DNA from: Candidatus Bathyarchaeota archaeon
GTDB lineage: Archaea; Thermoproteota; Bathyarchaeia; Bathyarchaeales; Bathycorpusculaceae
Assembly (NCBI GenBank): GCA_963827165.1
Contig: CAWGZR010000009.1
Span: 64,001 to 128,000, forward strand
Direction: 5' to 3'
DNA: 64,000 bases
Position 1 is the stretch's first letter. The number at the start of each line of letters is the position of its first letter. Both the position numbers and the translations under genes were made by a program. Shown here piece by piece: positions 17,294-36,509 of this stretch. The notes under the pieces were generated by a model. The model worked only from the letters and a program-made list of their open reading frames with translations. It did no database searches and was not told the DNA's origin.

Positions 17294-18186
17294 GCTTAAC
17301 AGCATTGTCTACTTTATCGTCAACCTTCAGTTTCAATCCAATTGTCGATCTGCAACGGATTTTTCAATTTGCCTTCATGCAGCACGCCTATGAGGCAGGA
17401 ACAGTCGTCGCAATTATCGCGGGCATTGTCGGCTATTTCATTGTGATTCGGCGTTCCTCATTCGCAGCGCATGCACTTTCCCACGTTGGTTTCAGTGGGG
17501 GGGCGTTTGCCGTATTAATCGGAGTTAGTCCCATTTATGGTCTTCTCGTGTTCACAAGTATTGGCGGACTTGCGATGGCTGCGCTTGGTAGGCGTGCTGC
17601 CTCGCGTGACGTTCAGATTGGAACAGTTCTCGCATTCATGCTCGGTCTAGGAGTGTTGTTCCTCAGCCTCTATACTGGTTATGCAACTGAAGCGTACTCG
17701 ATCTTGTTTGGAGAAATATTAGGCGTTAGTTATAGCGCTGTTCTTTTAACCCTCATTGCCGGTGCGGCAATTCTGGTTGTCACCGCGGTGGTATATCGAC
17801 CGCTCCTTTTTTCATCGCTTGATGAAGATGTGGCTGAAGCAAAAGGAATGCCAGTACTTTGGCTCGGCGTAATTTTCATGCTTCTGGTAGCAGTAGTAAC
17901 GTCATTTGCTGTTCAGGTCGTTGGCGTCTTGCTCATTTTCGCATTGATGGTCACGCCAGCTGCGACTGCTCAGATGTTGGCAAAACGACCGCGGCAAGTC
18001 ATAATTATTTCTGTAGTCATTGCTCTTCTGGCGACATGGCTGGGGCTTTTTATCGCGTTTTATACACCCTACCCGGTTAGCTTCTTCATATGTGCTAACG
18101 TTTTTATTTTGTATTTGCTTGTCCGATTCGTTTACCCCAAACTAAAGTCCTCGAAAAACACCCAGATTGACAAACCTCAGATTTAG
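17290..18186 (+). CDS. Metal ABC transporter permease (ZnuB/ABC-3 family)
   Basis: HALSH, ILFGEIL, DEDVAEAKG, VGVLL motifs; start at ATG 17290 (ATGA overlap) or 17278. Confidence 0.9.
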   Translation: MSLTALSTLSSTFSFNPIVDLQRIFQFAFMQHAYEAGTVVAIIAGIVGYFIVIRRSSFAAHALSHVGFSGGAFAVLIGVSPIYGLLVFTSIGGLAMAALGRRAASRDVQIGTVLAFMLGLGVLFLSLYTGYATEAYSILFGEILGVSYSAVLLTLIAGAAILVVTAVVYRPLLFSSLDEDVAEAKGMPVLWLGVIFMLLVAVVTSFAVQVVGVLLIFALMVTPAATAQMLAKRPRQVIIISVVIALLATWLGLFIAFYTPYPVSFFICANVFILYLLVRFVYPKLKSSKNTQIDKPQI

Positions 18187-18241
18187 ACCGACAACCAATA
18201 GAAAAGCACCTGCAAACTTTGAGTAAAAAAAATGAAGGGGT

Positions 18242-18814
18242 TTAGTAGTTTTCAACCCAAGCTTCAAAATAGGCTTTCGGATGTGCGCATACGGGGCATT
18301 TTTCTGGCACAGTTTTGCCCTCGAAGACGAAGCCGCAGTTTCTGCATTTCCATTTGATCGGCTGATCTTTACTGAAGACTTTGCCCTGCTGCAGGGTTTC
18401 AAGCAGTTTGTTGTATCTCCGTTCATGGTAAGATTCGACTTTTGCGACCATGCGGAAGGTTGTGCAAACATCTTTGAAGCCTTCACGTTCCGCAACGTCG
18501 GCGAAGTCGGGGTAAAGTTTACCCCACTCAAGTTTCTCCCCCTCTGCTGCCGCCTTAAGGTTTTCAGCGGTTGATCCAGTCATTCCTGCCGGATAGGTGG
18601 CTTTGATTTCAACCATTCCGCCTTTAAGATGATTAAAGAATAGTTGCGCATGCTCTTTCTCGTTGTCTGAGGTTTCTTGGAAGATAGCGGATATCTGCTC
18701 GTATCCTTCTTTTCTCGCTTGGCTAGAGAAAAATGTGTATCTGGTTCTTGCTTGTGATTCGCCTGCGAAAGCTGCTAAGAGGTTCTTTTCAGTTTGGCTA
18801 CCCACAAAATCCAT
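18242..18814 (-). CDS. rbr: Rubrerythrin
   Basis: AFAGESQA, NEKEHA, ESYHE, C-terminal WKCRNCG...CPVC; start re-called at MDFVGS (AAGGAG upstream). Confidence 0.95.
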   Translation of the reverse strand: MDFVGSQTEKNLLAAFAGESQARTRYTFFSSQARKEGYEQISAIFQETSDNEKEHAQLFFNHLKGGMVEIKATYPAGMTGSTAENLKAAAEGEKLEWGKLYPDFADVAEREGFKDVCTTFRMVAKVESYHERRYNKLLETLQQGKVFSKDQPIKWKCRNCGFVFEGKTVPEKCPVCAHPKAYFEAWVENY

Positions 18815-19424
18815 AGTTACAAAACTCCTTAACTCACTTACGGTGCAGTCGAAAAATAAAAGGGTTCCCCGTGGCCTGACGGAAGTCAAAGTATAGGCTT
18901 TTATTTGGGTTGAACTAGATATGTGGTTGCCGAATGATGAGAAGGCATTAGCTTGACATTTATTTGGATGAAAGTTCAGAGTTACTCAGACGGCGACGTC
19001 TGGGAAACTTTATTCAGCGGTTAGCGATAAGGTTTCCCAGGCGAAAACATTACAATTATTTGAAGTTGACTAACTGAAAATGGAAAAGAGAAGTAAAAAG
19101 GTTGTTTGGACCCCAAGAATAGTCCTTTGATACTTTTGGTTGCACACCCCCATGGCATGAGTGGGGACAGTTTACAGTCCGATCCTGCGAGAAGCAATAT
19201 GAATATCAGAATTTGAAATAGGAAAATTTGATCGCTCATATTAATTAATAAAGATTCGCTTGCAATTTTAACGTAAGAAATCGCTTCAATTTAGGAATCG
19301 AATTGTTCAGATTCCGAATATAGAAGTTTCAGTGTTCATAACTCTTTTTTAATACTTACCATCAATCCTGTCCTATGTCACCCAACCGAAGATGGGTTGT
19401 AAAATAGTTTAATTTGAACGCGAA

Positions 19425-19820
19425 ATGGAAAGGAAAAAAATGTTAGAAACAACAAGTGTCATCAAGAACAAAGTAATAATTGAAAACAATTTAATGGCCG
19501 AAGATCAAACAGCAGAAAGAAACGTTAAGACCTTTCTGGATATCGTAATAATGTCATTGCTGAATGGCAAAGCAACATATGGCTACAAAATCATTGCGAT
19601 AGTACACAAAGAGTTTGGCATTTTGCTCAGTCCAGCCACGCTTTACCCATTGCTTCACACATTAGAAGATGAGCAGTTAGTAGAATCCGATTCGGCCGAT
19701 GGGAAAACCTTCTACACATTAACTTTGAAAGGAAAGGCAACGTTTAGGAAGAAATTCATAGCTTATAATTTGTCTACACAAATAATGTGCTCCTTTGTAA
19801 AGAAATGTGGCTCGATCTGA
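19425..19820 (+). CDS. PadR-family wHTH transcriptional regulator
   Basis: TYGYKII...LSPATLYPLLHTLE...YTLTLKG. Confidence 0.88.
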   Translation: MERKKMLETTSVIKNKVIIENNLMAEDQTAERNVKTFLDIVIMSLLNGKATYGYKIIAIVHKEFGILLSPATLYPLLHTLEDEQLVESDSADGKTFYTLTLKGKATFRKKFIAYNLSTQIMCSFVKKCGSI

Positions 19821-19841
19821 ACGCAACCAACGAGGATCAAT

Positions 19842-20459
19842 TCAGATTGCGGGCATCAAAACCTCCTCTGATTGCCCAAGCTCTCTTACCACTTCTTCAA
19901 TTTTGCTCTTTAGAGCATCTATTTTCACGGCGCGAATTAATGCTATCTCAGTAACTAATTGATCTTTTATTAAAACCTGAAGTACGCCGCTTCCATCTTC
20001 TACGGTTTCTTCCGTAATAGTTGACAGACCTTTTATTTTGCATATAGATGTTTCAAACAATAGTTCGGTTGGCTTTTTTCTGAATAGAAAAAATCTTTTG
20101 TTCGTTACATAAAGATATCCTGGTCTCCATGTTCCAGAGACTGATTTTTTTTGGCAAAAATAAGAGGCAAACGTCTTTAGAATAATTTTTTCATTTTCAA
20201 ACAATGGAGCTTCTTCTGAACTTTCCGCCAAAACGGTTCTTCTGATCTGTTCATCCCAAGTTCCCATCATCCCGTAATCTATCATTGTAGTCAACCCCGC
20301 GATTGCAGCTTTTAAGTTGATGCCAATTAATGGAACGCCTGAAACTGAAATTATGATATCTGCATTAAGAATTATACCTTTAACCAAGATTCTGTCAATG
20401 AGGTCAACTAGAGCGCCATCCCTTGAGGGTTGCAAGTTAATCTTCTCCGTAATCAGCAT
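19842..20459 (-). CDS. gvpM: Gas vesicle protein GvpM-like fused to C-terminal PH/GRAM-like domain
   Basis: LVDLIDRILVKG...PLIGINLKAAIAGLTTMIDYG..WD (GvpA-family, GvpM type); GYLYVTNKRFFLF PH/GRAM-like motif; true start likely TTG 20435. Confidence 0.75.
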   Translation of the reverse strand: MLITEKINLQPSRDGALVDLIDRILVKGIILNADIIISVSGVPLIGINLKAAIAGLTTMIDYGMMGTWDEQIRRTVLAESSEEAPLFENEKIILKTFASYFCQKKSVSGTWRPGYLYVTNKRFFLFRKKPTELLFETSICKIKGLSTITEETVEDGSGVLQVLIKDQLVTEIALIRAVKIDALKSKIEEVVRELGQSEEVLMPAI

Positions 20460-22362
20460 CTAACAAAATCAACATTTCCCTCAAATTAAGGAACTCCAAG
20501 TTCACGTGGTCATGCGATGCTTGTTCAATTCGTTTTACGGAGGCTTCTAGTTCTTCCTTTTTCTCCTTTGGCAGCTTTTTGCCCAATCGACCTTCCGCGG
20601 CGGAAAGCAGCATTCGGCTCTGGTTTACTCTTTTTATCTTCGTCCTTGTACCTTCCATTAACTTGAGAAGTTGAACGGTCGAAATTTCGATCGTTGTGAG
20701 ATCCTTGTTATTCACATTCTTATTTAAATTGCGTAACGCCAAGTCCAGTTTTCTTTTATCTTTACAAGGGATTCTGCCAGCTTCCTCTTGAAGAAATTTT
20801 TTCACAGCCTGGATAGTTCCCGTTACACAATTTTGGGTTTCGATAAACCCCTTTACTTTCTCATCTGACTCGCTGAACCTAGTCGCTTCGATAATTCTCT
20901 TCATAATTTCATCTTCTGAAAGATTCTTTGTTTCCGCAATCTTGATAGCTTCTATTTTTCCTGTTTCTAAAATTTCTGCGGAGACAGTCAGGATACCGTT
21001 AGAATCTATTTTAAAGGCAACATCCACTTCTTGTTCGTGTTTAGCTCCTTGGGGGATACCTTCAAGCTTGAACATGCCTACAGTGGTGTTATCTTTGGCC
21101 ATTTCGCGTTCTCCTTGCAAGACATGAATTATCATCGACGTCTGGAAATCCTCTTCCGTTGCAAAAGTCATGTTTTCCTCTGTTGGAATTGCACTGTTTC
21201 TTTTAATTAGTCGGGTAAACAGCCCACCAGTTGTCTCCACACCTAAAGATAACGGAGTCACATCTAACAATAACAATTCTTTTATTTCGCCATTTAAGAC
21301 ACAGGCTTCAACACTCGCTCCAGTAGCGACTATTCCCATCGGGTCTATACCTAATTCAGGTTGCGTTTCAAAGTAACTGCCAAAATATTTTCTGACGATA
21401 GGTATTCTAGTTGGTCCTCCGACTAAAATTAGCTTATCAATATCCTCACGGTTTAAGCCTGAATCACTCAAAGATTGCTCTATTGGACCTTGCAGCCTAT
21501 CGAGCTGAGGTTTGATAAGTTCTTCAAGCTTATCACGTGTCAAAGCTATTCTCAGATTTGCGCCAGAGCACTTTGCCTTTACGCCGGTATCTATTGATGT
21601 TGAGACTTCTGTTGAAAGGTGAATCTTCGCCATTTCACCTGCATCTCTAAGTTTGCTTAGTCTCCTCTTATCATTCTCCAAGCAAATTCCGTACTTCTCT
21701 TCAATTTCTTCAACAAGATAGTCTAAAATTTCGTCATCCATGTCCTTACCGCCCAAATGAACATCGCCGCTGGTAGAAAGAACATGGAATAGCCCGTTGT
21801 TTATGTCCAGAATGGTAACGTCAAAGGTTCCGGCGCCCAAATCAAGCACTGCGATCTTAAGATTTTTTCCTAATTTGGCCATACCATAAGCTAACGAAGC
21901 TGCTGTGGGTTCGCTGACTATCCTCAAGACTTCAAAACCGGCTATTTCCCCGGCTTCTTTTGTTGCATTTCGTTGATTGTTGTTGAAGTAAGCGGGCGCC
22001 GAAATTACTGCTTTATCTATTTTCTCGCCCAAATAGGTTTCAGCGTCTTTTTTTATCTTCTTCAATATAAAAGCTGATATTTGTTGAGGGTTATATGACT
22101 GACCATTTATGTTCTCACAATGATCTGTACCGATTTTTCTTTTAATCCACTTGACAGTTCGATCAGGATAATCGTAAGAATATCTCTTTGCATCTTTTCC
22201 CACTAGAACTTCACCGTCATCTTTGAAAGCAACAATTGAAGGTACCATTTTCCCGTAAGCGGTTGGACCTTCTGCGGCTGGAACTATCCTTATTTTTCCT
22301 TCTTTCATCACAGCACCTGCAGAGTTGGAGGTCCCAAGATCGATTCCAATCGTTCGTCTCAT
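20437..22362 (-). CDS. dnaK: Hsp70/DnaK family chaperone (divergent paralogue inside gvp cluster)
   Basis: GIDLGTSNS, PAYF, EPTAA, DLGAGTFD, LVGGPTRIP, LLLDVTPLSLG linker, QGERE; start re-called at MRRTIG. Confidence 0.92.
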   Translation of the reverse strand: MRRTIGIDLGTSNSAGAVMKEGKIRIVPAAEGPTAYGKMVPSIVAFKDDGEVLVGKDAKRYSYDYPDRTVKWIKRKIGTDHCENINGQSYNPQQISAFILKKIKKDAETYLGEKIDKAVISAPAYFNNNQRNATKEAGEIAGFEVLRIVSEPTAASLAYGMAKLGKNLKIAVLDLGAGTFDVTILDINNGLFHVLSTSGDVHLGGKDMDDEILDYLVEEIEEKYGICLENDKRRLSKLRDAGEMAKIHLSTEVSTSIDTGVKAKCSGANLRIALTRDKLEELIKPQLDRLQGPIEQSLSDSGLNREDIDKLILVGGPTRIPIVRKYFGSYFETQPELGIDPMGIVATGASVEACVLNGEIKELLLLDVTPLSLGVETTGGLFTRLIKRNSAIPTEENMTFATEEDFQTSMIIHVLQGEREMAKDNTTVGMFKLEGIPQGAKHEQEVDVAFKIDSNGILTVSAEILETGKIEAIKIAETKNLSEDEIMKRIIEATRFSESDEKVKGFIETQNCVTGTIQAVKKFLQEEAGRIPCKDKRKLDLALRNLNKNVNNKDLTTIEISTVQLLKLMEGTRTKIKRVNQSRMLLSAAEGRLGKKLPKEKKEELEASVKRIEQASHDHVNLEFLNLREMLILLDADYGED

Positions 22363-22381
22363 CGAAATTCCCCCAAGATTG

Positions 22382-23362
22382 TTAGTTAATTCTTTCCTCG
22401 ATGAGAAAATTCTGTTTAACTTGGCTTTCCTCAAGTGAACAAAGATAGTGTTCACAGTATCTCGTTAGGAGAGATTGGGCTTCTCTAATTTTCTTGAACT
22501 TATTTTCACAAGATGGTTTATTTCGATGAAGGTCAGGATGATATTTTCGTACCAGAATGTTATATGCTGAATTAATCTCGGATATGCTTACTTCTTGACC
22601 TAATCCTAGGGTTTTTCTTGCATCGTCTAACTCGTCAAAGTTCATTTTTTTTACGCAGATTTTGGTAAAATTGTAAGCTGGCAAGTGACCTACTGAGAGA
22701 AACTCAAGCCTGCCGGCGTATTTTTCTTCCAACTTGTTTAATCTTTCGTTAAAATCTTGCTCGCGGTTTTTATCAATTAGAAAAGACATATTCGTTAGTG
22801 TATCTTGATCTTCGTTTTTGTTCTCTTCAGAATCCAACAAAACGGTTCCAAGTGAATGTTCTATGTCGGTTATGTATTCAAGTTTCTTTTCATCAAGGGC
22901 TTCCTTCACTTTTTTGCCTAGCTCAACTCTGAGGGTTTGATCATTATTTTTCTTAGATGCTTCGACCAGTTCTTTGATATGTTTGTTTTCGTTCAGGACG
23001 TATGCAAGGATGGTTTTGTTCCATGATATTTTAACGTTAATTTGTAATTTGTTGTCAACTTTTTCTAAAGTTTTCTTAAATTGCATTTTGCCTCGTTTTA
23101 GAATATTCTTTATTTCTTTTTCGTTTTTAGCCACTAATCCGAAACCCATTGGAATTAACGAGTATGGATCCATGATTTTACATAATACCTTTTCATGTGT
23201 TTTCGCTTCTTCGATGCCAATTCTGCAGTTGTCAAAAACGTCACTAACTACAGCACCCAGCTCTCCAAATTGGACAATGTATGTTTCGCCATTTCCAACT
23301 CCGATGTTTCCGAACGTTTTCTTGTTTTCAGAATCTATAATTCCGTAAATGTATTTTGCCAA
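22382..23362 (-). CDS. GvpL/GvpF family protein fused to C-terminal J-domain
   Basis: YIYGII, HEKVL, IPMGFG, GHLPAYNF (GvpF/L); then ARKTLGL...EINSAY...KYHPD...KFKKIREAQSLL (J-domain, HPD). Confidence 0.88.
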   Translation of the reverse strand: MAKYIYGIIDSENKKTFGNIGVGNGETYIVQFGELGAVVSDVFDNCRIGIEEAKTHEKVLCKIMDPYSLIPMGFGLVAKNEKEIKNILKRGKMQFKKTLEKVDNKLQINVKISWNKTILAYVLNENKHIKELVEASKKNNDQTLRVELGKKVKEALDEKKLEYITDIEHSLGTVLLDSEENKNEDQDTLTNMSFLIDKNREQDFNERLNKLEEKYAGRLEFLSVGHLPAYNFTKICVKKMNFDELDDARKTLGLGQEVSISEINSAYNILVRKYHPDLHRNKPSCENKFKKIREAQSLLTRYCEHYLCSLEESQVKQNFLIEERIN

Positions 23363-23367
23363 ATTTT

Positions 23368-24174
23368 TCAGTTCTCCTTAATTTTTGACTCGTTCATTTG
23401 TCCTGAGAAAGAATATGGCGGCCAAGGTCCAGTGAATCTAACGTCGAAGCCGTCATTCACAAACTTGGCTAATATGTTTCCTAATTCCTCAATTTTTCCC
23501 GTGTAAGCAAGACAGCTCATGTTAAGAATCATTTGTTTGTCTTTCCACTTTTCGGGAACTTCTTTGTTTGTTGAAGAAAGCTTTACCTCATCGACCAGAT
23601 TCTCGATTTGAACGCAAATATTTTTTGTGAATTTGTTTATGACAAGTTGTTTTTCAACCTGTATTTTTTGGTCTAGCTTTTTCCCCAGAAGGTAGGCTGC
23701 GCCGCCGCATGATTTTTTCAATTTCTCTTTTAAAGACTGTATTTCTTGATTTTCATTTAGTAAATCATCAAGATTTTGGTTCTTAAGGAAGATCTGAATT
23801 CCATATTCGGCTTTTCCTTCCAATCTGGCGAACAACTTTTTGAGCTGAAAGTACTGCTCAGATAACCACTTTCCGAGAGTTTCGTCGTTGCCTTTGAAGA
23901 TTGTGTCGAATGTCAACGGAATAACCGTTCCATATTCCTCTGTTGCCAAGTCAATTACATATTGATGCGCCAAAATCCACTCACCCGCTTTTTCTTTCGA
24001 TTTAGTTTCGTACGGTTTTGCTTTACACGAGTGAATGACCAGCCCCACGTCTTGAAAAGCTACAACTCTTACTTCATTGTCTTCAACGCCTATTGGCCGA
24101 AAATCATTTGCGTTTCCATTATTGATAATACAATAGACGTATTTTCCTTCTTCGAAACTATTTTCTTGAATCAT
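23368..24174 (-). CDS. gvpL: Gas vesicle protein GvpL (GvpL/GvpF family)
   Basis: GKYVYCI, HQYVID, TVIPLTFDTIF, GAAYLL, RFTGPWPPYSF; follows gvpK. Confidence 0.88.
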   Translation of the reverse strand: MIQENSFEEGKYVYCIINNGNANDFRPIGVEDNEVRVVAFQDVGLVIHSCKAKPYETKSKEKAGEWILAHQYVIDLATEEYGTVIPLTFDTIFKGNDETLGKWLSEQYFQLKKLFARLEGKAEYGIQIFLKNQNLDDLLNENQEIQSLKEKLKKSCGGAAYLLGKKLDQKIQVEKQLVINKFTKNICVQIENLVDEVKLSSTNKEVPEKWKDKQMILNMSCLAYTGKIEELGNILAKFVNDGFDVRFTGPWPPYSFSGQMNESKIKEN

Positions 24175-24488
24175 TGGGTAACACCTTTATTGTCTATGTT
24201 TTCAGGATCAGTCATTATATTGATGGTATCTTCCACCATTCGGTCGAGGTCAGTCCTCAAACATTTAACAACAGATTGAAGACTGTTTTCTTCCTTGATG
24301 TGCTCAAGCGCATGATCAAGTTCCATCAACCCATTGCCCAATCTTTCAACTTCGTACTCGTCTAATCTGCCTGACTCCATTCTTCTCACAGCTTCTTTTT
24401 CAAGAACTTCCTGGATAACTTCAACTAAAGTGACAATAACTCCGAGAAGACCGGTTTTCAGGTCTTGTTCATTAATTTCTATTGGCAT
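24171..24488 (-). CDS. gvpK: Gas vesicle protein GvpK
   Basis: GLLGVIVTLVEVIQEVLEKEAVRRMESGRL...ERLG. Confidence 0.92.
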   Translation of the reverse strand: MPIEINEQDLKTGLLGVIVTLVEVIQEVLEKEAVRRMESGRLDEYEVERLGNGLMELDHALEHIKEENSLQSVVKCLRTDLDRMVEDTINIMTDPENIDNKGVTQ

Positions 24489-25014
24489 GTGATTCCTCCT
24501 TCGTGCTTAGTTTTACCTCCAAGACACTGTTGTGAAGGTTTTTTTCAATTTTGCCAATGACTGAGCAGGGCAAATGAACTTCTTTGTAATATTCTTTCCC
24601 AGATATTATTAGACAAGACTCAGTCAATCTCAATTGTACAAATTTCTCCGTCGAAGGGAGCGCGGCAATGACCCTTACTAGATTTTCCTCTTCTATTACA
24701 TCTATAAGCTCCTCTGCACGAACTTTGCTGGCGAAATCTTCATCTACCCACCAGCTGAACATGATTTTTTGACCAGTTAACCGATCTATCTTCGACTGCT
24801 GGAAAGAAAGGATTGGTTTACCAATGATCTCTTTGGCAGTTGGGTTGATGATTTCTCTTATGATCAGAAGAACTTCCATATCTGAGGATGCGCACAGCAG
24901 ATTCGATAAATCTCTTAGCTCTGCATGACTCTCGTTTAATAGGAACATTGTCATCTTTCTGCTTTTCTCGTCCAAAACATTAAGGAGCAAATCAAGTTTG
25001 GTCAAAGCGCTCAA
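24472..25014 (-). CDS. Hsp20/alpha-crystallin-like (GvpH-like) protein with N-terminal helical (HTH-like) domain
   Basis: C-terminal IDVIEEENLVRVIAALP...YYKEVHLP...HNSVLEVKL. Confidence 0.7.
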   Translation of the reverse strand: MSALTKLDLLLNVLDEKSRKMTMFLLNESHAELRDLSNLLCASSDMEVLLIIREIINPTAKEIIGKPILSFQQSKIDRLTGQKIMFSWWVDEDFASKVRAEELIDVIEEENLVRVIAALPSTEKFVQLRLTESCLIISGKEYYKEVHLPCSVIGKIEKNLHNSVLEVKLSTKEESHANRN

Positions 25015-25397
25015 TTCTGTACCCCCAATTTAACTCCAACTTTCATAGCTTTTTCTTTCTGCGATCTGGCACTTTCCCATCCGCACCAAGGACATGCAAA
25101 GTTCAATAATTCGTTTCTGTTAACGTCTTTTCCACATTGAGGGCAATCTTCTTTTTCGATACTAACGTCTTTCCAAGCGATTGTTTCCAGATTGGTTCCC
25201 GATGGAAATTCTAGCCCATATTTTGCTGCGGTCTCAAATGAAGCGAGTGCAGCTCTGATTTTTATTCCCAGCAGTTCCACTCCAGCAACGCTGATTGCAA
25301 TATCTGCGTTAATTACCAATCCCTTATCCAAGATTCTATCGATTGCTTCGGCTAAACCCGAATTCTCTTTTTCTGGTCTTAATGCTAAATTCGTCAT
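25011..25397 (-). CDS. gvpJ: Gas vesicle protein GvpJ with C-terminal zinc ribbon
   Basis: LAEAIDRILDKGLVINADI...RAALASFETAAKYGLEFP; CPQC...CPWC. Confidence 0.9.
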   Translation of the reverse strand: MTNLALRPEKENSGLAEAIDRILDKGLVINADIAISVAGVELLGIKIRAALASFETAAKYGLEFPSGTNLETIAWKDVSIEKEDCPQCGKDVNRNELLNFACPWCGWESARSQKEKAMKVGVKLGVQN

Positions 25398-25415
25398 ATT
25401 CTTAATCTCCTGATT

Positions 25416-25760
25416 TTAGTATTGAATTCCGCCACACCAAGGACACTCTCTTTCATGTTCTTCCCCAGTGGATTTTCTACCGCACTTTCGACAGATCTGC
25501 AACATTGACATGGCTTGCCATGCTTGCGCCTCTAGATTAGTATTTGCGGGAAATTTCAAACCCAGCTTTTTTGCTGTCTCAAAGGAAGAAAGAATTATGC
25601 GCGACTTAGTGTCTAAAAGACTGATGTCACTAATTCGAATCTTCGCAGCCGCGTCTATTATGACACCTTTGTCCATTATCACATCTAATAGACTGTTCAA
25701 GGTGGCCTCTCGTGATTTACTGAATACCAAAAAAGACCCCCCTTGCACGTTGATAGACAT
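25416..25760 (-). CDS. Divergent GvpJ paralogue with zinc ribbon
   Basis: LLDVIMDKGVIIDA...SSFETAKKLGLKFP; CRKC...CPWC; start uncertain. Confidence 0.8.
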   Translation of the reverse strand: MSINVQGGSFLVFSKSREATLNSLLDVIMDKGVIIDAAAKIRISDISLLDTKSRIILSSFETAKKLGLKFPANTNLEAQAWQAMSMLQICRKCGRKSTGEEHERECPWCGGIQY

Positions 25761-25881
25761 GTTCTTTTCTTTGAAAAACGGTCAACTCCGATCCGATGTT
25801 TCCGTTACCAAATAGGTTTTCGAAACTATTCCATCTGCCTGATTTTTGTACTTCTTTCAATACATTCGCTTCCTACAATAT

Positions 25882-26172
25882 TTAGCCTAAAATGTTAATT
25901 CTTTGACTTGGACGAACTATGTTTAACCTTTTATTTGTCATCCGTTGGTGACAAAGTGCATTGTTGCGTTCTTCATATTCTTCCTGAGTTTTCTCGCCAA
26001 GTTCATAGAGGAGTCTATTTTCTCTAAGTTCATTGTTAATTCTTTGCTGATTTTCATTAACTCTACCTTCATCGGCATAATCCATTATAGTCTCCATTAG
26101 CCAAACCATGTCAAATGGTGGCACAGAAAGACCCAACATTTCCAGGAAAAGATCATCTATAAAAAAGGGCAT
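25882..26172 (-). CDS. gvpG: Gas vesicle protein GvpG
   Basis: FFIDDLF..PF, ELRENRLLYELGE...EEYEER; follows gvpF. Confidence 0.85.
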   Translation of the reverse strand: MPFFIDDLFLEMLGLSVPPFDMVWLMETIMDYADEGRVNENQQRINNELRENRLLYELGEKTQEEYEERNNALCHQRMTNKRLNIVRPSQRINILG

Positions 26173-26176
26173 TCGA

Positions 26177-26836
26177 CTACACCCGTTTCTTCTTTACTTC
26201 TACACCTTCTGCACCTATCTTTATGTACACAAAGTTATGTGGTGCCCAGGGTCCACTATATAGAAACTTTAGCGTTGAATATTTGGTCTGAAGTCTTTCA
26301 ACTTCCTCTGAGAATGAACCTATCAATTCTTTCCCGACCAAAAAAGACGCGTTTAAAACAAGTCTTTCGCTGAACAAGCCACATGCGACTGCTTCCTTGG
26401 ACTTAGATTTCAGAGATTCTAATATTTCTGAAACCATTGTTTCTTTCTGTTCTGCATCTACAAAAGCAGTTTTGTCGGTTCTAACAATCTTTACCCCGAG
26501 TTCAACCATATTTTCGACTACTTTTAGAGATTCTAAAGCAGGGCTATAGGCCTTCTTAATCAAGCGTTTCAAGATTATGTCATTTTTTATTGTTGTTCCA
26601 AATTCAGTCGGGACAACTGAGTATTCATTCATTATTTCTTGAACAACTTTCTCATGTTTCTTTGTATTATTTTCGGTCAACTCGTAGTCTGTCATCGGAG
26701 AATCGCTGACAACTGCCGCAATGCCGCCGCAGGGAATGGTAAAAACTTCCTTGTCATTCAAGCCTATCTTGCCGAAGTTTCTTTCTTCAGAGCATTTTAT
26801 TACGCAGTAAAAATATTTTCCTTGTTCCTTATCCAT
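26177..26836 (-). CDS. gvpF: Gas vesicle protein GvpF
   Basis: GKYFYCV, AVVSD, HEKVVQ, VPTEFG, LNASFLV, YSGPWAPHNFV. Confidence 0.9.
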   Translation of the reverse strand: MDKEQGKYFYCVIKCSEERNFGKIGLNDKEVFTIPCGGIAAVVSDSPMTDYELTENNTKKHEKVVQEIMNEYSVVPTEFGTTIKNDIILKRLIKKAYSPALESLKVVENMVELGVKIVRTDKTAFVDAEQKETMVSEILESLKSKSKEAVACGLFSERLVLNASFLVGKELIGSFSEEVERLQTKYSTLKFLYSGPWAPHNFVYIKIGAEGVEVKKKRV

Positions 26837-26847
26837 TTGACAAACCT

Positions 26848-27669
26848 CTAGATTTCAAGTTCTTGTTTCAGGTAATGGTTCAGAACAGAATGAGCTTGAA
26901 TATGTTCATGAACCAAGTTTCTTATTCTTGGTTTGGCATCTTCAACCGGGCCATAAACTATTTCTTTGCCTGATTTTTTGAATGCCAGTAACCCTTTTTG
27001 CTCCAGCGAATGAAGCAACGGATATATTGTTCCTGGACTAAGTAGCACGTTAAACTTCAAATGTATGGTTCCTATTATTTCAGTTCCACACATCATGTCC
27101 TTCTGAAGAATGGCTAAGATTACATTTTCTAAGTTATCCTTTACTATTTTTTCAACAGACTTGCCCGACAATTCAGATTCATTGAAGAAGTCTCCAGACA
27201 ATATTGTCAAATCACTTGTCGTCAAACGAAGCTCATTATGATACGTAGCTAACTGCTTGATTTTTTCAAAGTTGAATTTTGTAAGGTCATAAGTACATAA
27301 GCAGTTTAAGTTGCTGCCCCGGCATAATTCGTTTAGATAACCCTCTCTTTTTTCAATTTCAGCACATTTTTCGTTAGCTAATGACCCCGCGTCAATTATA
27401 AGCTGCAAATCATTGTCTTCGCTGTTGAGTTCGTAAAGTTCGCTTGAATTAATAATCTTCAACTGAATGCTTAAATGATTGAACTCTTCCGTTAGCAATG
27501 AGCTGTCGTCTCCAGTAACATAAATTATTCTTTGGTTTGCTCTGGAAGGAATCAAGAATGCGTTTTGGATCGAATACTTATCTACATTTGGAGCATAAAG
27601 ATGCAGGGCATGTTTTGAATTAGTTCCGCAGATTTTCAGGGATTCCATAGGCAGATTTTTTGTGTACAT
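26848..27669 (-). CDS. MEDS-like sensor domain fused to PadR/GvpE-like wHTH regulator
   Basis: N-terminal HALHLY...IIYVT...LIIDAG...LCTYD (MEDS-like); C-terminal MCGTEII...LSPGTIYPLLHSLEQKGL. Confidence 0.75.
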   Translation of the reverse strand: MYTKNLPMESLKICGTNSKHALHLYAPNVDKYSIQNAFLIPSRANQRIIYVTGDDSSLLTEEFNHLSIQLKIINSSELYELNSEDNDLQLIIDAGSLANEKCAEIEKREGYLNELCRGSNLNCLCTYDLTKFNFEKIKQLATYHNELRLTTSDLTILSGDFFNESELSGKSVEKIVKDNLENVILAILQKDMMCGTEIIGTIHLKFNVLLSPGTIYPLLHSLEQKGLLAFKKSGKEIVYGPVEDAKPRIRNLVHEHIQAHSVLNHYLKQELEI

Positions 27670-27689
27670 TCAGTTTCCTTCCTTACCTC

Positions 27690-27971
27690 TTACTCCTCTA
27701 TCTCAGACGCAATTCGATCACTGCGTTTTCTGACCATTTTCTGTGTCCAGCCAATTACTTTCCCTTCTTCATCTAGTCTTATTACATATCTTGCGAGAAG
27801 ATCTTGTGTGTCCGGTATGGATTTTCTCTGCAATACTTCGACGGTGACTGCCCATTCGCCATTTTTCTCTTTGATATCTACAATGGTTTCAGGGTTTTTG
27901 GAGAGAAACCTTTTTGCCGCGTCAAGAGCAACTTCTGTAATCTTAAAAAGCGAAAGCTTATTTTGCGTCAT
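27690..27971 (-). CDS. gvpO: Gas vesicle protein GvpO
   Basis: GEWAVTVEVLQRKSIPDTQDLLARYVIRLDEEG. Confidence 0.92.
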   Translation of the reverse strand: MTQNKLSLFKITEVALDAAKRFLSKNPETIVDIKEKNGEWAVTVEVLQRKSIPDTQDLLARYVIRLDEEGKVIGWTQKMVRKRSDRIASEIEE

Positions 27972-27998
27972 TTTCGTTTGCTCTCCTCTTCAAAACCC

Positions 27999-29060
27999 CT
28001 ACGGTTGGCAAACGCCGATTTCTGGAACTATAAAATCGGGGCTGTTTTTCTGTATGTTAACGTGGGCATCGCACAGTATTTCTCTAATGAAATCAATTTT
28101 GTCAGGGATCTCCACTGGATTACCTATTTTTGTTGCGAGCACATCTAAGCAAATTTGTTCAAAGTCTTCTTTGGAATAATTACCCATTGCTTTGAGTCCT
28201 TTAGAAATCATGATTTCTGCACGTGTACCAGGCTTGTGAGGATCAGGCAATTCTTTTCTTAGGGAACGAACGATTTTGACAATATTTTTTGCCTCGACCA
28301 CTGATATGTGGGAATGTGCTCTGACTATTTTCACTTCGGTGTCAAAGTCGTAATAGTCCATGTGAAGATCGATCATTCTGTCCAACAGGGCGTCTTGTGG
28401 TCTATGAACTCCCGCGTATTCAACAGAGTTACTTGTGAATATTACCTTAAAGTCTGGATGAACTTTTACGTATCTTTCGTCTCCGAACATCGTTGGAAGT
28501 TCTAAAACGTGTTCCTCTAATACTGATAGAAGAACATTGTTGGCTTCGGGCTTTGATCTTGAAAACTCGTTGTAAACTAAAGTGTAGCCGTATTTGCATG
28601 CGAGCGTAAGCGGATTGTCAACCCACCTATATTTTGTCTTATCCTTAGTCACCCTGACGTTATGGATATATTTGTCCACTAGACTTTCGGCTTCCATTTC
28701 TGAGTATCCACCGATTAAGTCGGTTGTTGTAATCTGATCGTCGCCGTTTATCCAAACTGTCGGTCGGCCCAATTCTTTTGCCACTTGCATGGCCATCGTT
28801 GTCTTTCCGCAACCAGTAGGTCCTACGATATGAGGGTGACATGAAGCTTTAACCCATAATCTGATTCTGTCTTTTAATTGTCTAACTTGATCGGTTTCAA
28901 TAAAACTTTCAATCTTGGGAGTTAAGAACTCTGTCTCCACTCGATCTATGGAGAGTTCCGCTTGTTTCGTTTCATCAGAAATCTTGGATTGTCTTTCTTC
29001 CAAAGTTTCATGAACCCGTTTTCCACGGACAACTCTTTGATGAGTCGGCATATATTTCAA
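27999..29060 (-). CDS. gvpN: Gas vesicle protein GvpN (AAA+ ATPase)
   Basis: GPTGCGKT, WVDNPLTLAC, YNEFSRSKPEANNVLL, HPDF, EYAGVH.PQDALLDRM. Confidence 0.95.
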   Translation of the reverse strand: MKYMPTHQRVVRGKRVHETLEERQSKISDETKQAELSIDRVETEFLTPKIESFIETDQVRQLKDRIRLWVKASCHPHIVGPTGCGKTTMAMQVAKELGRPTVWINGDDQITTTDLIGGYSEMEAESLVDKYIHNVRVTKDKTKYRWVDNPLTLACKYGYTLVYNEFSRSKPEANNVLLSVLEEHVLELPTMFGDERYVKVHPDFKVIFTSNSVEYAGVHRPQDALLDRMIDLHMDYYDFDTEVKIVRAHSHISVVEAKNIVKIVRSLRKELPDPHKPGTRAEIMISKGLKAMGNYSKEDFEQICLDVLATKIGNPVEIPDKIDFIREILCDAHVNIQKNSPDFIVPEIGVCQP

Positions 29061-29111
29061 TTCTAAATTCCTCGGTTTTTTCTTGTAAGAACGTGTATCT
29101 CGACAATTCCT

Positions 29112-29152
29112 TTTAAGGAATATTCAGATATTCGTTACGAAAACTGTATCGA
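29112..29152 (-). promoter_or_regulatory. gvpN promoter motif TCGATAC-N17-TCTGAATATTcCTTAAA
   Basis: Same motif and spacing as upstream of gvpA; ends in TATA-like CTTAAAAG. Confidence 0.65.
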
Positions 29153-29261
29153 AAAGCGAAAACTATCTAGAAGGTTTCTCTATCTGGGTCAAAACAAGAT
29201 CTTGGTGAAAACGCTTAATCAAACCTTGATTTGGAGGTCTCGATGAAAGAAAAAAAAGGGC

Positions 29262-29432
29262 TCAATTTTTCAAGGCTTTTTCTTTTTTGAGATCATTTAC
29301 CCATAGCATACGTACTCGCTGTGGACGAGGCACGACTGAACAGTATTGTACCATTTCTCTGTGTTTTCTTAACCACTGTATTTTCTTATCCCTTTCTTGT
29401 GCATTAACAGCACTTTTCGGCATTTTTGACAA
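29262..29432 (-). CDS. Unannotated 56-aa basic protein between gvpC-like and gvpN (possibly GvpI-like)
   Basis: GAGGTGA SD then TTG; MSKMPKSAVNAQERDKKIQWLRKHREMVQYCSVVPRPQRVRMLWVNDLKKEKALKN; T8 tract follows stop. Confidence 0.6.
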   Translation of the reverse strand: MSKMPKSAVNAQERDKKIQWLRKHREMVQYCSVVPRPQRVRMLWVNDLKKEKALKN

Positions 29433-29536
29433 ACTACTTCACCTCTTAATTAATCAGTTTCTTGAATGTTAATTTTGATTATATTAATAGGAAAATATGG
29501 AGAAGAGGAACAGCTTATTCTAAGGATGAGTGGAGC

Positions 29537-29911
29537 TCATCCATAGAACTGTTTCGTGTATTCGCGTTGTTCTTTCACTTGTTTGGCTATGCTAGCTTGC
29601 ATGGCAGCAATACCGGATACCATTTCAGCGACGCCTGAACTAAGGTTGTTGGAACCTTCTGCATGCATTTTGATTGCGGCCTTTTGGAAATTGGCGCTGG
29701 TTTTTTGAATGCTTTTTTGCATGTCGCGAACGCCTGAATTAAGGTTGCTGATACCTGATGCAAGCATCTCGTTGGCGGCTTCTTGGAAATTGACGGCGGT
29801 TTGCTTGTAAAGCGTTCTTTTGCCATTTACGCTATTCGGGTTTGGTTTTGTTTCTGTTTTCGTTGGTTCAGCTGTTGTCACTGTTTGTTTTTTCGGTTTT
29901 TGTTTAGACAT
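29537..29911 (-). CDS. gvpC: GvpC-like protein with two 33-aa repeats
   Basis: TAVNFQEAANEMLASGISNLNSGVRDMQKSIQK / TSANFQKAAIKMHAEGSNNLSSGVAEMVSGIAA; position between gvpA and gvpN; ends FYG. Confidence 0.65.
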   Translation of the reverse strand: MSKQKPKKQTVTTAEPTKTETKPNPNSVNGKRTLYKQTAVNFQEAANEMLASGISNLNSGVRDMQKSIQKTSANFQKAAIKMHAEGSNNLSSGVAEMVSGIAAMQASIAKQVKEQREYTKQFYG

Positions 29912-29949
29912 TTATTATTCAACTCAACTTTGTTCGTTTTTTTGCAGAT

Positions 29950-30177
29950 TTAGGAGGCTGGAACAGGAGCGGCTATTGCTGCTTGTTCGACCTTTGTGAT
30001 CTCTTCCGCGTAGTGTAGGAATGTATCTACTGAAGCGACTACCACTCTAGCTTCGATGGTGAGAATTTCAATTCCAACCAGTGAAGCTCTTGCCCAAGCA
30101 TCGACGACTATTCCTTTATCCATTATGCGATCAATTACTTCTGCCAAACTACCTGAATCTGGACTTTGTTGCACCAT
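29950..30177 (-). CDS. gvpA: Major gas vesicle structural protein GvpA (copy 2)
   Basis: [51 protein letters not shown]. Confidence 0.97.
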
Positions 30178-30256
30178 TTTTAATTCACCTCACGATTTTT
30201 CGGTTTTTGTTTAGACATTTATTATTCAACTCAACTTTGTTCGTTTTTTTGCAGAT

Positions 30257-30484
30257 TTAGGAGGCTGGAACAGGAGCGGCTATTGCTGCTTGTTCGACCT
30301 TTGTGATCTCTTCCGCGTAGTGTAGGAATGTATCTACTGAAGCGACTACCACTCTAGCTTCGATGGTGAGAATTTCAATTCCAACCAGTGAAGCTCTTGC
30401 CCAAGCATCGACGACTATTCCTTTATCCATTATGCGATCAATTACTTCTGCCAAACTACCTGAATCTGGACTTTGTTGCACCAT
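30257..30484 (-). CDS. gvpA: Major gas vesicle structural protein GvpA (copy 1)
   Basis: Identical to copy 2; GAGGTGA SD. Confidence 0.97.
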
Positions 30485-30544
30485 TTTTAATTCACCTCTT
30501 TATGCATGCGATTGTTTCTGCATCTCGAGTATGATATATTGTTA

Positions 30545-30585
30545 TTTAAGCAATATTCAGACTGTAAGAACGGGTTTCGTATCGA
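30545..30585 (-). promoter_or_regulatory. gvpA promoter motif TCGATAC-N17-TCTGAATATTgCTTAAA
   Basis: Shared with gvpN upstream region; ends in TATA-like CTTAAATA. Confidence 0.65.
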
Positions 30586-30763
30586 GATTCGATATGTGAC
30601 GTGTTCATTTCTTCAACTATTCCCATTTCGGAGTAAAGCCTAAACTACCTTCATGACAGTTAAACGGTTAAGAACTGGATCAAGATTATATGAAATTGAG
30701 TGCTTTCGGGTTTCCAAAACAATATTACGTCTGTTTGATGATGTAACGAAAGGAAAGGGTTAG

Positions 30764-31351
30764 TTGATGTGGCTGATCTGTCGAATGACTTTCAGAAAAG
30801 GCATAACCAAATTACTGGTCCGAGGCATAGACGGTGCTGGATGGGTTTTTTGCCCGATGATAAAAAGCATAAAGAACGACAAAGTATCTCTACAATGCTG
30901 CAACAAATGTACCCAATTTATTCGTTTCGAACACAACTCCTTTCACCAGATAGCCGCCACTGGAAGACCAAGATTTATTCCGAATCATGTGGGTCGATCT
31001 CATTTCAGCAGGCCTACATCAAAACGAAAATGTTTCCCAATTTCCACAGTGCCGAGGCAGTATCCATCGTCAATTAGTTTTAGAGGAGAAAAGCAGCCAA
31101 TTGTAGACGTCTTTGAAGAGGAAGATAGCGTAATAATTTTAGCGGAATTACCCGGGATTGAAGAGAAAGACATAGACCTGCAAATAGAGGAAAACTTTGT
31201 AACAATTATTGCAGAAAACGCAACTAAGAAATATTTAGAAAAGAGAAAACTTCCAACACGAATCACTGGAGATCCGGTGAAATTCATTTACAGAAACAAT
31301 ATATTGCAAGCAAAACTGAAAAAATCTGTAAAAAATTCGCCAAATGCCTGA
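30764..31351 (+). CDS. Hsp20/alpha-crystallin domain protein with Cys-rich N-terminus
   Basis: PIVDVFEEEDSVIILAELPGIEEKDI...YRNNILQAKL; N-terminal CP..CCNKC; divergent from gvpA. Confidence 0.8.
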   Translation: MMWLICRMTFRKGITKLLVRGIDGAGWVFCPMIKSIKNDKVSLQCCNKCTQFIRFEHNSFHQIAATGRPRFIPNHVGRSHFSRPTSKRKCFPISTVPRQYPSSISFRGEKQPIVDVFEEEDSVIILAELPGIEEKDIDLQIEENFVTIIAENATKKYLEKRKLPTRITGDPVKFIYRNNILQAKLKKSVKNSPNA

Positions 31352-31412
31352 ATCAAAAAAAGCTTGTATCACTACCAATCCAAAGCCGTGATTTTAATAC
31401 TGGTCATGGCCC

Positions 31413-32018
31413 TTAAGTTCTAGCGTCGAATCCAATTGAGATTTTATCTATTGTTTCCATGAGTTTACGCAGACCTGATTCAATATCACCTTTTGACATA
31501 TGCAATATTATTTGTGAAGTCCCCTTTTTCAATCCAGCCACTTGATGGCAGGTTTCACAACTCCATTTTCCTTTTTCAAAGCTCTTGCAAGCCAAAAGTA
31601 TTTCAGCAGCGTTCATCAGTTCGCGTGCTTTTGATGCTTTTTCTGTCAAGTTTTGTGCATGATTTATTTGGTTAGTAAGCTGTTTAATTGCCTGATCCAT
31701 TTTTGTGAAATTCGCACAGCTTGTTAGGTCAGGTTGTTTTTTTACTTTGAAGCCTGATGAATTTATAGCGACTTCGATACCCACAGAGTGGCAGATTTTA
31801 TAGTATTTTCGTGCCGCGCCCAAAGGACTATCTTGGCGAAAGCTTTCGATCAGACCAGCTTGTTCGAGGATGCTTAAGTGTTTGAGAATCGCCGGTTGTG
31901 TAATCTCCAATTCCTTTGCAATTTCAGATATGTAGTGTGGTTCTTGAGAAAGGAGAGTGAGTATTTTTCGCCTCGTTTCGTTTCCGACTATTTGTAGAAA
32001 TTTTCCTGTTGGTTCCAT
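31413..32018 (-). CDS. ArsR-type wHTH regulator, Phr/HSR1 heat-shock repressor-like
   Basis: GNETRRKIL.LL..EPHYISEIAKEL...AILKHL.ILEQAGLI...RKYY; start re-called at MEPTG (GAGGAGG upstream). Confidence 0.8.
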   Translation of the reverse strand: MEPTGKFLQIVGNETRRKILTLLSQEPHYISEIAKELEITQPAILKHLSILEQAGLIESFRQDSPLGAARKYYKICHSVGIEVAINSSGFKVKKQPDLTSCANFTKMDQAIKQLTNQINHAQNLTEKASKARELMNAAEILLACKSFEKGKWSCETCHQVAGLKKGTSQIILHMSKGDIESGLRKLMETIDKISIGFDART

Positions 32019-32050
32019 TTGTCGCCTCCTCACCCATTTAGAGTGAAACA

Positions 32051-32088
32051 AAATGTATATATACATTTAGTTATTAACTAAAGGTTAA
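32051..32088. promoter_or_regulatory. Overlapping palindromes in the divergent regulator/cdc48 promoter, including TTAAC-N5-GTTAA
   Basis: AAATGTATATATACATTT (32051-32068), TTTAGTTA-T-TAACTAAA (32066-32082), TTAAC-TAAAG-GTTAA (32074-32088). Confidence 0.6.
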
Positions 32089-32116
32089 GTAGCTCAAGTT
32101 AAGAAAGTGCAAATTA

Positions 32117-36011: not shown

Positions 36012-36069
36012 ACAAACCCACAGCGATTGGAGGTTCAAGATAGTCGTACTATTTACGATAGCAACGGAA

Positions 36070-36432: not shown

Positions 36433-36509
36433 ATTTGATTCACCGCAAAACCCGTTGAATGGGAAATTGTTGATTTCGGTAATTGTCTGAATGAGAAAGT
36501 TTGCATTGT

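Follow-up and report, generated by a model that had tools for sequence, protein, structure and literature searches.

A conserved gas vesicle gene island with chaperone, unfoldase, and regulator genes in a Bathyarchaeia genome

The gas vesicle island and its host genome

Ranking among the most abundant uncultured archaea, Bathyarchaeia are commonly regarded as non-motile dwellers of anoxic sediments and soils. Here, we describe a gas vesicle protein (gvp) gene island in a Bathyarchaeia genome, analyzed within a stretch of 64,000 nt (assembly GCA_963827165.1, contig CAWGZR010000009.1, positions 64,001–128,000 of the forward strand). This whole stretch is hereafter called the window, and all positions are relative to it. 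The lists of open reading frames (ORFs) include a series of 17 co-oriented minus-strand ORFs at 19842–30484, in exactly the order that an initial annotation of this DNA had given for a minus-strand cluster. The extent proposed there holds for this series, but the conserved unit continues for ~5.5 kb further rightward. Specifically, a tblastn search of 20 window proteins against 61 related loci, together with a comparison to the congeneric genome G424, delimited a conserved island of 16.6 kb (19425–36011), which adds to the minus-strand series a divergent PadR regulator, a gene similar to small heat-shock proteins (sHSPs), an ArsR regulator, a CDC48 paralog, a gene for a predicted zincin-fold protein, and a second sHSP gene. 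The island comprises the following genes (Pfam cut-offs are 23.6 bits for PF06386 and 25 bits for PF00741).

19425–19820, plus strand: PadR-family regulator, divergent from the gvp operon, at the left edge of the island (PF03551, 46.8 bits)
19842–20459, minus strand: GvpM-like protein (A-J-M family) fused to a PH/GRAM-like domain, 205 aa (PF00741, 48.2 bits)
20437–22455, minus strand: cluster-specific Hsp70 paralog (PF00012, 573.7 bits)
22382–23362, minus strand: GvpL/F::J-domain fusion, J domain C-terminal (PF06386, 169.7 bits; PF00226, 44.9 bits, cut-off 27.8)
23368–24174, minus strand: GvpL (PF06386, 192.5 bits)
24171–24488, minus strand: GvpK (PF05121, 68.4 bits, cut-off 25)
24472–25014, minus strand: two-domain protein of 180 aa (p180), with a gvp-linked N-terminal domain and an alpha-crystallin-like C-terminal domain (NCBIfam Hsp20)
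25011–25397, minus strand: GvpJ-like protein with a C-terminal CPxC...CPWC zinc ribbon (PF00741, 60.1 bits; haloarchaeal GvpJ, E-value 1.1e-29)
25416–25760, minus strand: second, more divergent GvpJ-like protein with a zinc ribbon (PF00741, 27.9 bits; NCBIfam GvpJ, E-value 4.3e-13)
25882–26172, minus strand: GvpG (PF05120, 31.5 bits, cut-off 30.6)
26177–26836, minus strand: GvpF (PF06386, 138.8 bits)
26848–27669, minus strand: MEDS sensor-like domain fused to a PadR winged helix, MEDS::PadR (PadR, 27.4 bits; MEDS, 19 bits, under the cut-off)
27690–27971, minus strand: GvpO (PF05800, 64.9 bits, cut-off 25)
27999–29060, minus strand: GvpN AAA+ ATPase (AAA_5, 72.4 bits; TIGR02640 equivalog, 345.8 bits, cut-off 266.8)
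29262–29432, minus strand: conserved basic protein of 56 aa (p56), matched in 13 loci
29537–29911, minus strand: repeat protein of 124 aa (p124) in the gvpC position (TIGR03057 heptad repeat, 22.3 bits, cut-off 18.6)
29950–30177, minus strand: gvpA copy 2 (PF00741)
30257–30484, minus strand: gvpA copy 1, with GAGGTGA 8 nt ahead of the ATG (PF00741, NCBIfam)
30764–31351, plus strand: sHSP-like protein, divergent from gvpA, start codon uncertain (NCBIfam archaeal Hsp20, E-value 2.7e-22)
31413–32066, minus strand: ArsR-family regulator, syntenic (PF01022, 61.3 bits)
32117–34291, plus strand: CDC48/VAT-type double AAA+ ATPase, island-specific paralog (PF02359, 93.9 bits; PF02933, 37 bits; PF00004, 317 bits in two stretches)
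34288–35271, plus strand: predicted zincin-fold protein of 327 aa (p327), its start overlapping the CDC48 stop (VIA fold search)
35268–36011, plus strand: protein of 247 aa with a C-terminal alpha-crystallin domain, at the right edge of the island (PF00011, 25.8 bits, cut-off 20.8)

The minus-strand genes are mostly tightly packed, with neighbors overlapping or separated by <40 nt. Larger gaps separate gvpG from gvpJ (121 nt), the 56-aa ORF from its neighbors (104 and 201 nt), and one gvpA copy from the other (79 nt). Counterparts of gvpA, O, F, G, J, K, L, and M, all named in the initial annotation, were recovered with Pfam and NCBIfam models, and gvpN in addition. The 61 related loci, found in a scan of species-representative genomes, comprise 18 Bathyarchaeia-type, 4 other archaeal, and 39 bacterial loci. 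The same gene order recurs across Bathyarchaeia-type loci (L032–L047, L050, and L053), and an orthologue of the left-edge PadR gene adjoins gvpM::PH in 15 of the 18. In G424 (locus L095), the island is complete through CDC48, p327, and the 247-aa sHSP following p327, the last of which is also present in L039. We then evaluated selection by comparing rates of non-synonymous (pN) and synonymous (pS) change against three relatives, using the corresponding substitution-rate ratio (dN/dS) only where dS was not saturated: every island gene displayed pN far under pS, with dN/dS values of 0.03–0.31. As judged from sequence, chance is excluded by the curated family scores, the synteny across many genomes, and the low pN. 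We interpret positions 19425–36011 as an intact Bathyarchaeia gas vesicle island under purifying selection that most likely makes gas vesicles, a reading to which we assign a probability of roughly 70%.

The host genome (3.13 Mb, 14 contigs, 94.5% complete), in which the window is part of contig 9, is assigned to Bathyarchaeia from its DNA ligase, record titles, and kinship labels. Two genomes with the NCBI title “Candidatus Bathyarchaeota archaeon” encode ATP-dependent DNA ligases sharing 85% and 82% identity with the one encoded in the window, compared with 68% for the metagenome-assembled genome (MAG) BA2 and 32% for a Nitrosotalea MAG. The nearest relatives of the cluster proteins also have Bathyarchaeia names, those of the fusion protein being named “Candidatus Bathyarchaeia archaeon”. 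Both observations bear out the host that the initial annotation had considered probable. The lineage had also been described there as regarded as sediment-dwelling, which does not match the public runs holding this sequence, all labelled soil metagenome and with no RNA run listed among them.

The assembly is of metagenome type with 3.92% estimated contamination, and the island (GC 0.37–0.41) is slightly lower in GC than its left flank, as might be expected if it were a contaminant or misassembly foreign to the Bathyarchaeia genome. Sequencing depth adds to this concern: in run X1, summed contig depth is 14–17 over 17500–19491 versus 7–9 over the island, and one contig fits to 20165, then continues with unlike sequence. 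This depth difference and diverging contig may reflect a second strain with the same left flank but different sequence beyond. A foreign origin is opposed by the setting of the island, near archaeal housekeeping genes in a 14-contig genome, i.e., in a window that encodes an archaeal Nre and the ligase sharing 85% identity with its counterpart in a named Bathyarchaeota MAG, and by the recurrence of the same island on Bathyarchaeia-titled contigs of 0.4–2.0 Mb. In addition, contigs of four runs from two studies span the stretch without joints, one of them bridging 31458–37400. This read-level check used short Logan contigs, with no single listed record across the left island edge; the run that best holds the sequence may be the source sample itself and hence not independent, and uncovered bins in runs X3 and X4 carry no meaning. 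Overall, we consider a misassembled contaminant, a concern raised along with the initial annotation, to be highly improbable.

Shell and assembly genes in comparison with known clusters

The two gvpA genes encode identical proteins of 75 aa (PF00741, 52.2 bits; NCBIfam GvpA, 129.7 bits, cut-off 100) that are 78.5% identical to Halobacterium salinarum GvpA over residues 6–70. Both copies sit in a 300-nt tandem repeat (100% identical, spacing 307), whose unit reaches into the opening codons of the following gene, indicating that gvpA was recently duplicated or underwent gene conversion. By family membership, GvpA is the shell protein, the two GvpJ-like proteins and the GvpM-like protein are minor members of the A-J-M family, and GvpF, L, G, K, O, and N form the assembly set as in haloarchaea. 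The best NCBIfam models were haloarchaeal GvpJ for both J-like proteins and haloarchaeal GvpM for the 205-aa protein (E-value 4e-25), with all J-like and M-like scores under the haloarchaeon-specific cut-offs of these models. A GvpJ bearing the CPxC...CPWC ribbon was the best GvpJ match in 30 of 53 loci.

The fusion of GvpM to a PH domain, as proposed in the initial annotation, is upheld by structure prediction at moderate model confidence. An AlphaFold (AF2) model built from a 21-orthologue alignment reached a mean predicted local distance difference test score (pLDDT) of 67.9, with blocks of the C-terminal domain mostly at 80–87, and folds this domain into seven strands (residues 92–177) and a closing helix (residues 180–193). 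A Foldseek search with the domain yielded 130 matches at E ≤ 0.001 (best 6.4e-6), of the PH/GRAM type (GRK2, Akt, Btk, MTMR2, and Lam6). At the sequence level, the Pfam bPH_3 match is insignificant (E-value 0.0095), and the motif W-R-x-G-x-L-Y-x-T is kept in the 21 aligned orthologues, bacterial ones included.

GvpN is under strong purifying selection (dN/dS 0.05–0.11) and combines a Walker A motif (GPTGCGKT) with YNEF at the Walker B position (residues ~161–166). The replacement of Asp by Asn in this ATPase motif is lineage-wide, being shared by the window and all 14 Bathyarchaeia-type GvpN rows that cover the site, one further row being without cover there, while 22 of 22 bacterial rows read YDEF. 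Between gvpN and gvpA lie two small genes. The 56-aa p56, with no family match in Pfam, is a real gene as judged from pN of 0.03–0.08 versus pS of 0.45–0.55 in three comparisons. The 124-aa p124 contains two copies of a 99-nt (33-aa) unit and displays dN/dS of 0.19–0.31; cyanobacterial GvpC has 33-residue repeats. The initial annotation had labelled this gene “C-like”, but a Pfam search for GvpC (PF01304) gave no match at E ≤ 0.01, and there is no homology to GvpC. We regard p124 as a candidate outer stiffener, GvpC-like by its position and repeat only.

Next, we compared the island to described gvp clusters. In common with the vac regions of Halobacterium salinarum (gvpACNO / gvpDEFGHIJKLM), it includes A, N, O, F, G, J, K, L, and M counterparts, a repeat protein following gvpA, and a GvpA of high identity (78.5%, see above). 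In contrast to these regions, Pfam and NCBIfam scans of the window gave no match to GvpD, E, H, or I, and the gvp genes form a single co-oriented series instead of two divergent operons. The island also exceeds the Halobacterium regions by a third, J-fused GvpF/L, an Hsp70, zinc ribbons on GvpJ, a PH domain on GvpM, and MEDS::PadR, as well as by the CDC48 paralog, the predicted zincin-fold protein, and three sHSP-like genes. The gvp clusters of Methanosarcina, as described in passages of PMC9501494, resemble the island in having an anaerobic archaeal host and several identical gvpA copies, and these passages make no mention of Hsp70, J-domain, or CDC48 genes. The genome of M. acetivorans, included as a control, yielded no PF06386 match. 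More broadly, chaperone fusions and paralogs, along with the regulators, set the island apart from the haloarchaeal, cyanobacterial, Bacillus, and Serratia clusters to the extent that these are covered in the same passages of that review (PMC9501494). Bacterial gvp clusters with an Hsp20 gene have been noted before; as far as excerpts of that report go, they feature ArsA-type ATPases, not Hsp70, J domain, or CDC48, and include no archaeal Thermoproteota (PMC2963123). Overall, by every feature that can be tested in sequence save GvpC homology, the island is a gvp cluster.

We then evaluated the distribution of the island from several genome samples, which overlap and include incomplete genomes, such that a missing match is not proof of absence. 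None of 24 congeners matched the GvpL/F family (PF06386). Matches came from 1 of 16 other genomes sampled in the order, 6 of 400 in the class (the window's own family and a second family contributing three each), and 7 of 400 in the phylum. Among the 18 Bathyarchaeia-type loci of the species-representative scan, 16 are so titled, including BA2, one is titled Micrarchaeota, and one Thermoproteota. The order MEDS::PadR-F-G ... L/F::J-Hsp70 is partly retained in the four other archaeal loci, which come from a Methanomicrobia archaeon and from Thermoplasmatales, Halobacteria, and Nitrosotalea MAGs. The domain-fusion architecture that the initial annotation had called unusual is indeed present, but with 18 Bathyarchaeia-type loci it is not peculiar to this genome, and its hallmark fusions are also found in other archaea and in anaerobic bacteria.

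Some variation was apparent among the archaeal loci. The two loci titled “Candidatus Micrarchaeota archaeon” (L039) and “Thermoproteota archaeon” (L053) bear a Bathyarchaeia-type island, with a fusion protein 51–58% identical and an Hsp70 or CDC48 falling within Bathyarchaeia clades; these titles may reflect mislabelled or misbinned contigs, or a transfer. A second island subtype (L042–L046 and L050) has gvpM::PH between gvpL and the J fusion, and L038 and L039 encode an extra GvpL and a longer GvpM-like protein (318–325 aa).

The 39 bacterial loci are mostly from anaerobic lineages. The anaerobic-bacterial set (L054–L091) includes Syntrophorhabdaceae, Dehalococcoidia, Atribacterota, Syntrophomonadaceae, and Petrotogaceae MAGs, and Desulforhopalus vacuolatus DSM 9700. 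These loci share with the island A, N, Hsp20, CDC48, GvpL/F (16 loci with the J-domain HPD motif), and the ribboned GvpJ, and further the p180 N-terminal domain, K, L, a GvpM-like protein with a PH-type extension, and O. They differ in gene order and in most protein identities being only 25–60%, and searches of these loci gave no match to MEDS::PadR, p56, p124, or p327. In the named isolate D. vacuolatus DSM 9700, the related cluster includes Hsp20, CDC48, and GvpL/F::J with HPD. This species is gas-vacuolate.

A literature search of open-licence PMC and bioRxiv, with subscription papers (e.g., the BA2 description) and supplements outside its scope, found no paper linking Bathyarchaeia to gas vesicles and hence no identical cluster already described, the other concern attached to the initial annotation. 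The same search found no J domain, Hsp70, or CDC48 tied to gvp clusters. In Bathyarchaeia MAGs, the fusion is labelled “GvpL/GvpF family gas vesicle protein” by automatic annotation at NCBI, i.e., the genes are already public by annotation but without discussion in the literature searched.

Chaperone, unfoldase, and regulatory genes

The J domain of the GvpL/F fusion has its HPD motif at residues 275–277, and all three residues (H275, P276, and D277) are unchanged across an alignment of 30 sequences. In the protein database, 196 relatives were found at E ≤ 0.001, and the 120 of them listed are 52–100% identical and all include both domains. HPD is present in the fusion of all 22 archaeal loci and of 16 of the 39 bacterial loci. 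An Hsp70 gene lies directly downstream of the J fusion in 22 of 22 archaeal loci, an adjacency that supports a putative physical and functional link between this J domain and the cluster Hsp70. A complex prediction from alignments of Hsp70 residues 1–610 and J-domain residues 236–326 scored 0.01 and, being run without controls, is no evidence either way.

The likely start of the cluster Hsp70 is Met32 at position 22362, as most orthologue alignments begin at residue 29–30. The protein falls under the DnaK equivalog cut-offs (630.2 versus 648 bits for NF001413, 625.7 versus 822.55 bits for TIGR02350), and a canonical grpE-dnaK-dnaJ operon is found elsewhere on the contig, 155 kb away. The archaeal gvp-linked Hsp70s group as a clade in a maximum-likelihood tree (support of 95 in the Shimodaira–Hasegawa-like approximate likelihood-ratio test, SH-aLRT), separately from the housekeeping DnaKs that these genomes also encode, and the sole bacterial gvp-linked Hsp70 (L054) is on a long, unresolved branch. 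This tree is limited to ORFs of at least 450 aa with at least 400 residues matched, and omits L034, L036, L038, L039, L042, L043, L045, L049, and L095 on these grounds. We classify the cluster Hsp70, from its scores and phylogeny, as a divergent, cluster-specific Hsp70 paralog.

A precedent for such a pair is HscB-HscA in Fe-S cluster assembly, where a specialized J protein passes one client class to a specialized Hsp70 paralog. The island follows the same paired logic, and NCBIfam HscA models are among the matches of the window Hsp70. Unlike in HscB-HscA, clients would be bound by a GvpF/L domain, DnaK models outscore HscA models for the Hsp70, and the system is known from genes alone.

The island CDC48 is likewise an additional copy, being 55% identical to a second CDC48 of the same genome. 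Across 30 congeners, 27 displayed only CDC48 at 47–58% identity, two incomplete genomes gave no match, and an 83%-identical form was found only in G424, which also has the island. CDC48 is also found within 28 of the 39 bacterial gvp loci, and two bacterial genomes checked had no CDC48 match other than the gvp-linked one. A tree of CDC48 sequences places the Bathyarchaeia gvp-linked copies in one clade (support 100) beside archaeal housekeeping copies, with the bacterial ones apart; this tree is midpoint-rooted, includes some long branches, and omits fragments <560 aa, such that a single origin is not decidable from this rooting.

CDC48, p327, and the 247-aa sHSP (32117–36011) form a translationally coupled trio, and bacterial gvp loci have CDC48 with no match to p327. 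Relatives of p327 amount to at least 120 clusters, all hypothetical, in which H132, E133, and E136 are invariant, i.e., an H-E-x-x-E motif stands in place of HExxH. The protein had no match in Pfam or in a PDB sequence profile search, and Foldseek returned none at E ≤ 0.001. The AF2 model (pLDDT 78.5), however, matched 3cmn in the VIA fold search (Z 15.1), followed by M1, M4, and other zinc peptidases (Z 8–10), and an Atlas search gave only leads below 0.9 for named families. On the basis of this model, p327 is predicted to adopt a zincin fold with H-E-x-x-E for HExxH. An AAA+ unfoldase beside a zincin-fold protein resembles an FtsH-type protease split across two genes.

The p180 gene between gvpJ and gvpK, called “Hsp20” in the initial annotation, resembles Hsp20 in its C-terminal half, where residues 100–176 match NCBIfam archaeal Hsp20 (E-value 4.4e-11, under the cut-off), but not in its N-terminal half, which is a separate gvp-linked domain. 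The full protein has no Pfam match. The N-terminal domain occurs alone in bacterial gvp loci, and a homologue annotated as hypothetical is encoded on a Natrinema zhouii plasmid (NZ_CP084884.1, 224423–226983; L121) in the order gas vesicle protein, hypothetical, gvpK, gvpL, gvpJ. The domain appears from these contexts to be an unnamed gvp component. The sHSP-like gene at 30764–31351 scores 18.4 bits against Pfam HSP20, which, like its NCBIfam match (E-value 2.7e-22), is under the cut-off, and it is conserved at this position in Bathyarchaeia-type loci.

Hsp70, CDC48, and the sHSPs could in principle be general stress genes merely travelling with gvp, without a role in vesicle assembly. Chaperone genes are often located in variable regions, an Hsp70 is missing inside 15 of the 16 bacterial J-fusion loci, and the CDC48 tree alone does not put the gvp-linked copies in one clade. 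Against this, a J domain is covalently joined to a GvpL/F domain in all 120 relatives listed of 196, and both Hsp70 and CDC48 are extra paralogs found only where the island is. Given also the presence of CDC48 inside 28 of 39 bacterial gvp loci, and the two bacterial genomes for which it is the sole CDC48 match, we consider passenger genes improbable and favor a role of these proteins in vesicle assembly.

Turning to regulation, the initial annotation had proposed MEDS::PadR as a sensor fusion. The PadR part is firm, being matched in 18 of 18 orthologues, and a PDB profile search returned PadR regulators only. The MEDS part of the window protein scores 19 bits, short of the PF14417 cut-off (29.8), and MEDS is matched at E ≤ 0.01 in 17 of 18 orthologues (best 6.8e-9). 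MEDS::PadR is probably the cluster regulator.

An ABC-3 transporter of the left flank was found in only 5 of 30 congeners, and outside the island neither G424 nor the gvp-less congener G016 has anything more in common with the window. Signs of a mobile element were not detected, i.e., there is no tRNA gene in the window, no direct repeat flanking the island, and no integrase among the scanned ORFs. An Rfam scan of the window at gathering thresholds gave no match. The gene immediately left of the island (18242–18889) encodes a rubrerythrin with a rubredoxin-like domain, which fits an anaerobe and is not conserved there in G424. To the right (36070–46065), a run of small winged-helix, PadR, and AsnC-type regulators leads to a TrmB-PAS protein and two histidine kinases with PAS domains, one of which also has a receiver domain; these genes are not island-linked in G424. 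Further right, a 1084-aa protein (57412–60666) unites a CheB methylesterase, a CheR methyltransferase, PAS, and a histidine kinase ATPase domain.

Assembly model, possible functions, and implications

In Halobacterium, passages of PMC9501494 describe GvpF as binding GvpA, GvpL as binding GvpJ and GvpM, and the A-J-M proteins as aggregating without helpers. By analogy, the J-fused third GvpF/L would hold aggregation-prone A-J-M clients by its GvpF/L domain, and its J domain, with HPD intact, would trigger the cluster Hsp70, thereby bringing it to the held proteins. Three alpha-crystallin-type proteins would keep subunits soluble, and the CDC48 unfoldase, perhaps with the zincin-fold protein, would extract or clear misassembled subunits. 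The 124-aa p124 with its 33-aa repeats would fill the place of GvpC, and MEDS::PadR, PadR, and ArsR would set expression. The presumed use is buoyancy in the pore water of water-saturated soil or peat.

Extending this model beyond the window, we tentatively propose a dedicated, so far undescribed chaperone line in gas vesicle assembly in many anaerobes of both domains, in which a J-fused GvpF/L would hand A-J-M proteins to Hsp70 (a cluster paralog in archaea), with a gvp-specific CDC48 and sHSPs beside it and a zincin-fold partner in Bathyarchaeia. Bathyarchaeia with the island would then be buoyant, gas-vacuolate cells in waterlogged soils. We rate this full scheme as somewhat short of even odds.

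Several observations weigh against vesicle formation or parts of this model. Gas vesicles in Bathyarchaeia are known from genes alone, with no vesicle, transcript, or protein seen, and actinomycetes have gvp clusters though they have not been seen to float. The island is dispensable, given its rarity among relatives (6 of 400 class and 7 of 400 phylum genomes). The Asn at the GvpN Walker B site could weaken ATP hydrolysis, and the basis for a GvpC-like role of p124 is only its position and repeat length. Finally, an Hsp70 was found within only 1 of 16 bacterial J-fusion loci (several of them short), and as 15 of these loci show none inside, a dedicated Hsp70 would not be obligatory.

The cluster could also be real and maintained, with a product serving stress or desiccation, gas storage, or cell-volume control instead of flotation, or being rarely expressed. 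The soil metagenome label of all runs with the sequence would fit such a function, as would the wealth of stress-type genes (three sHSP-like, Hsp70, CDC48) and the rarity of the island among relatives. Yet GvpA is 78.5% identical to that of the buoyant Halobacterium, the full assembly set is under purifying selection, and water-saturated soil or peat would offer a water column at the pore scale. A function other than flotation is hence unlikely in our view, if less so than mere passenger genes, and we retain flotation as the preferred reading.

The J::GvpF/L fusion, along with a cluster-specific Hsp70 and CDC48, points to the handling of highly aggregation-prone shell proteins. These helper genes bear on a practical problem, since in one screen, according to excerpts of its report, only 5 of 15 gvp clusters yielded vesicles in E. 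coli (PMC10344784). For Bathyarchaeia themselves, vesicles would provide a visible, pressure-collapsible trait by which cells could be enriched and sorted, and a maintained island would offer some members of this group vertical positioning.

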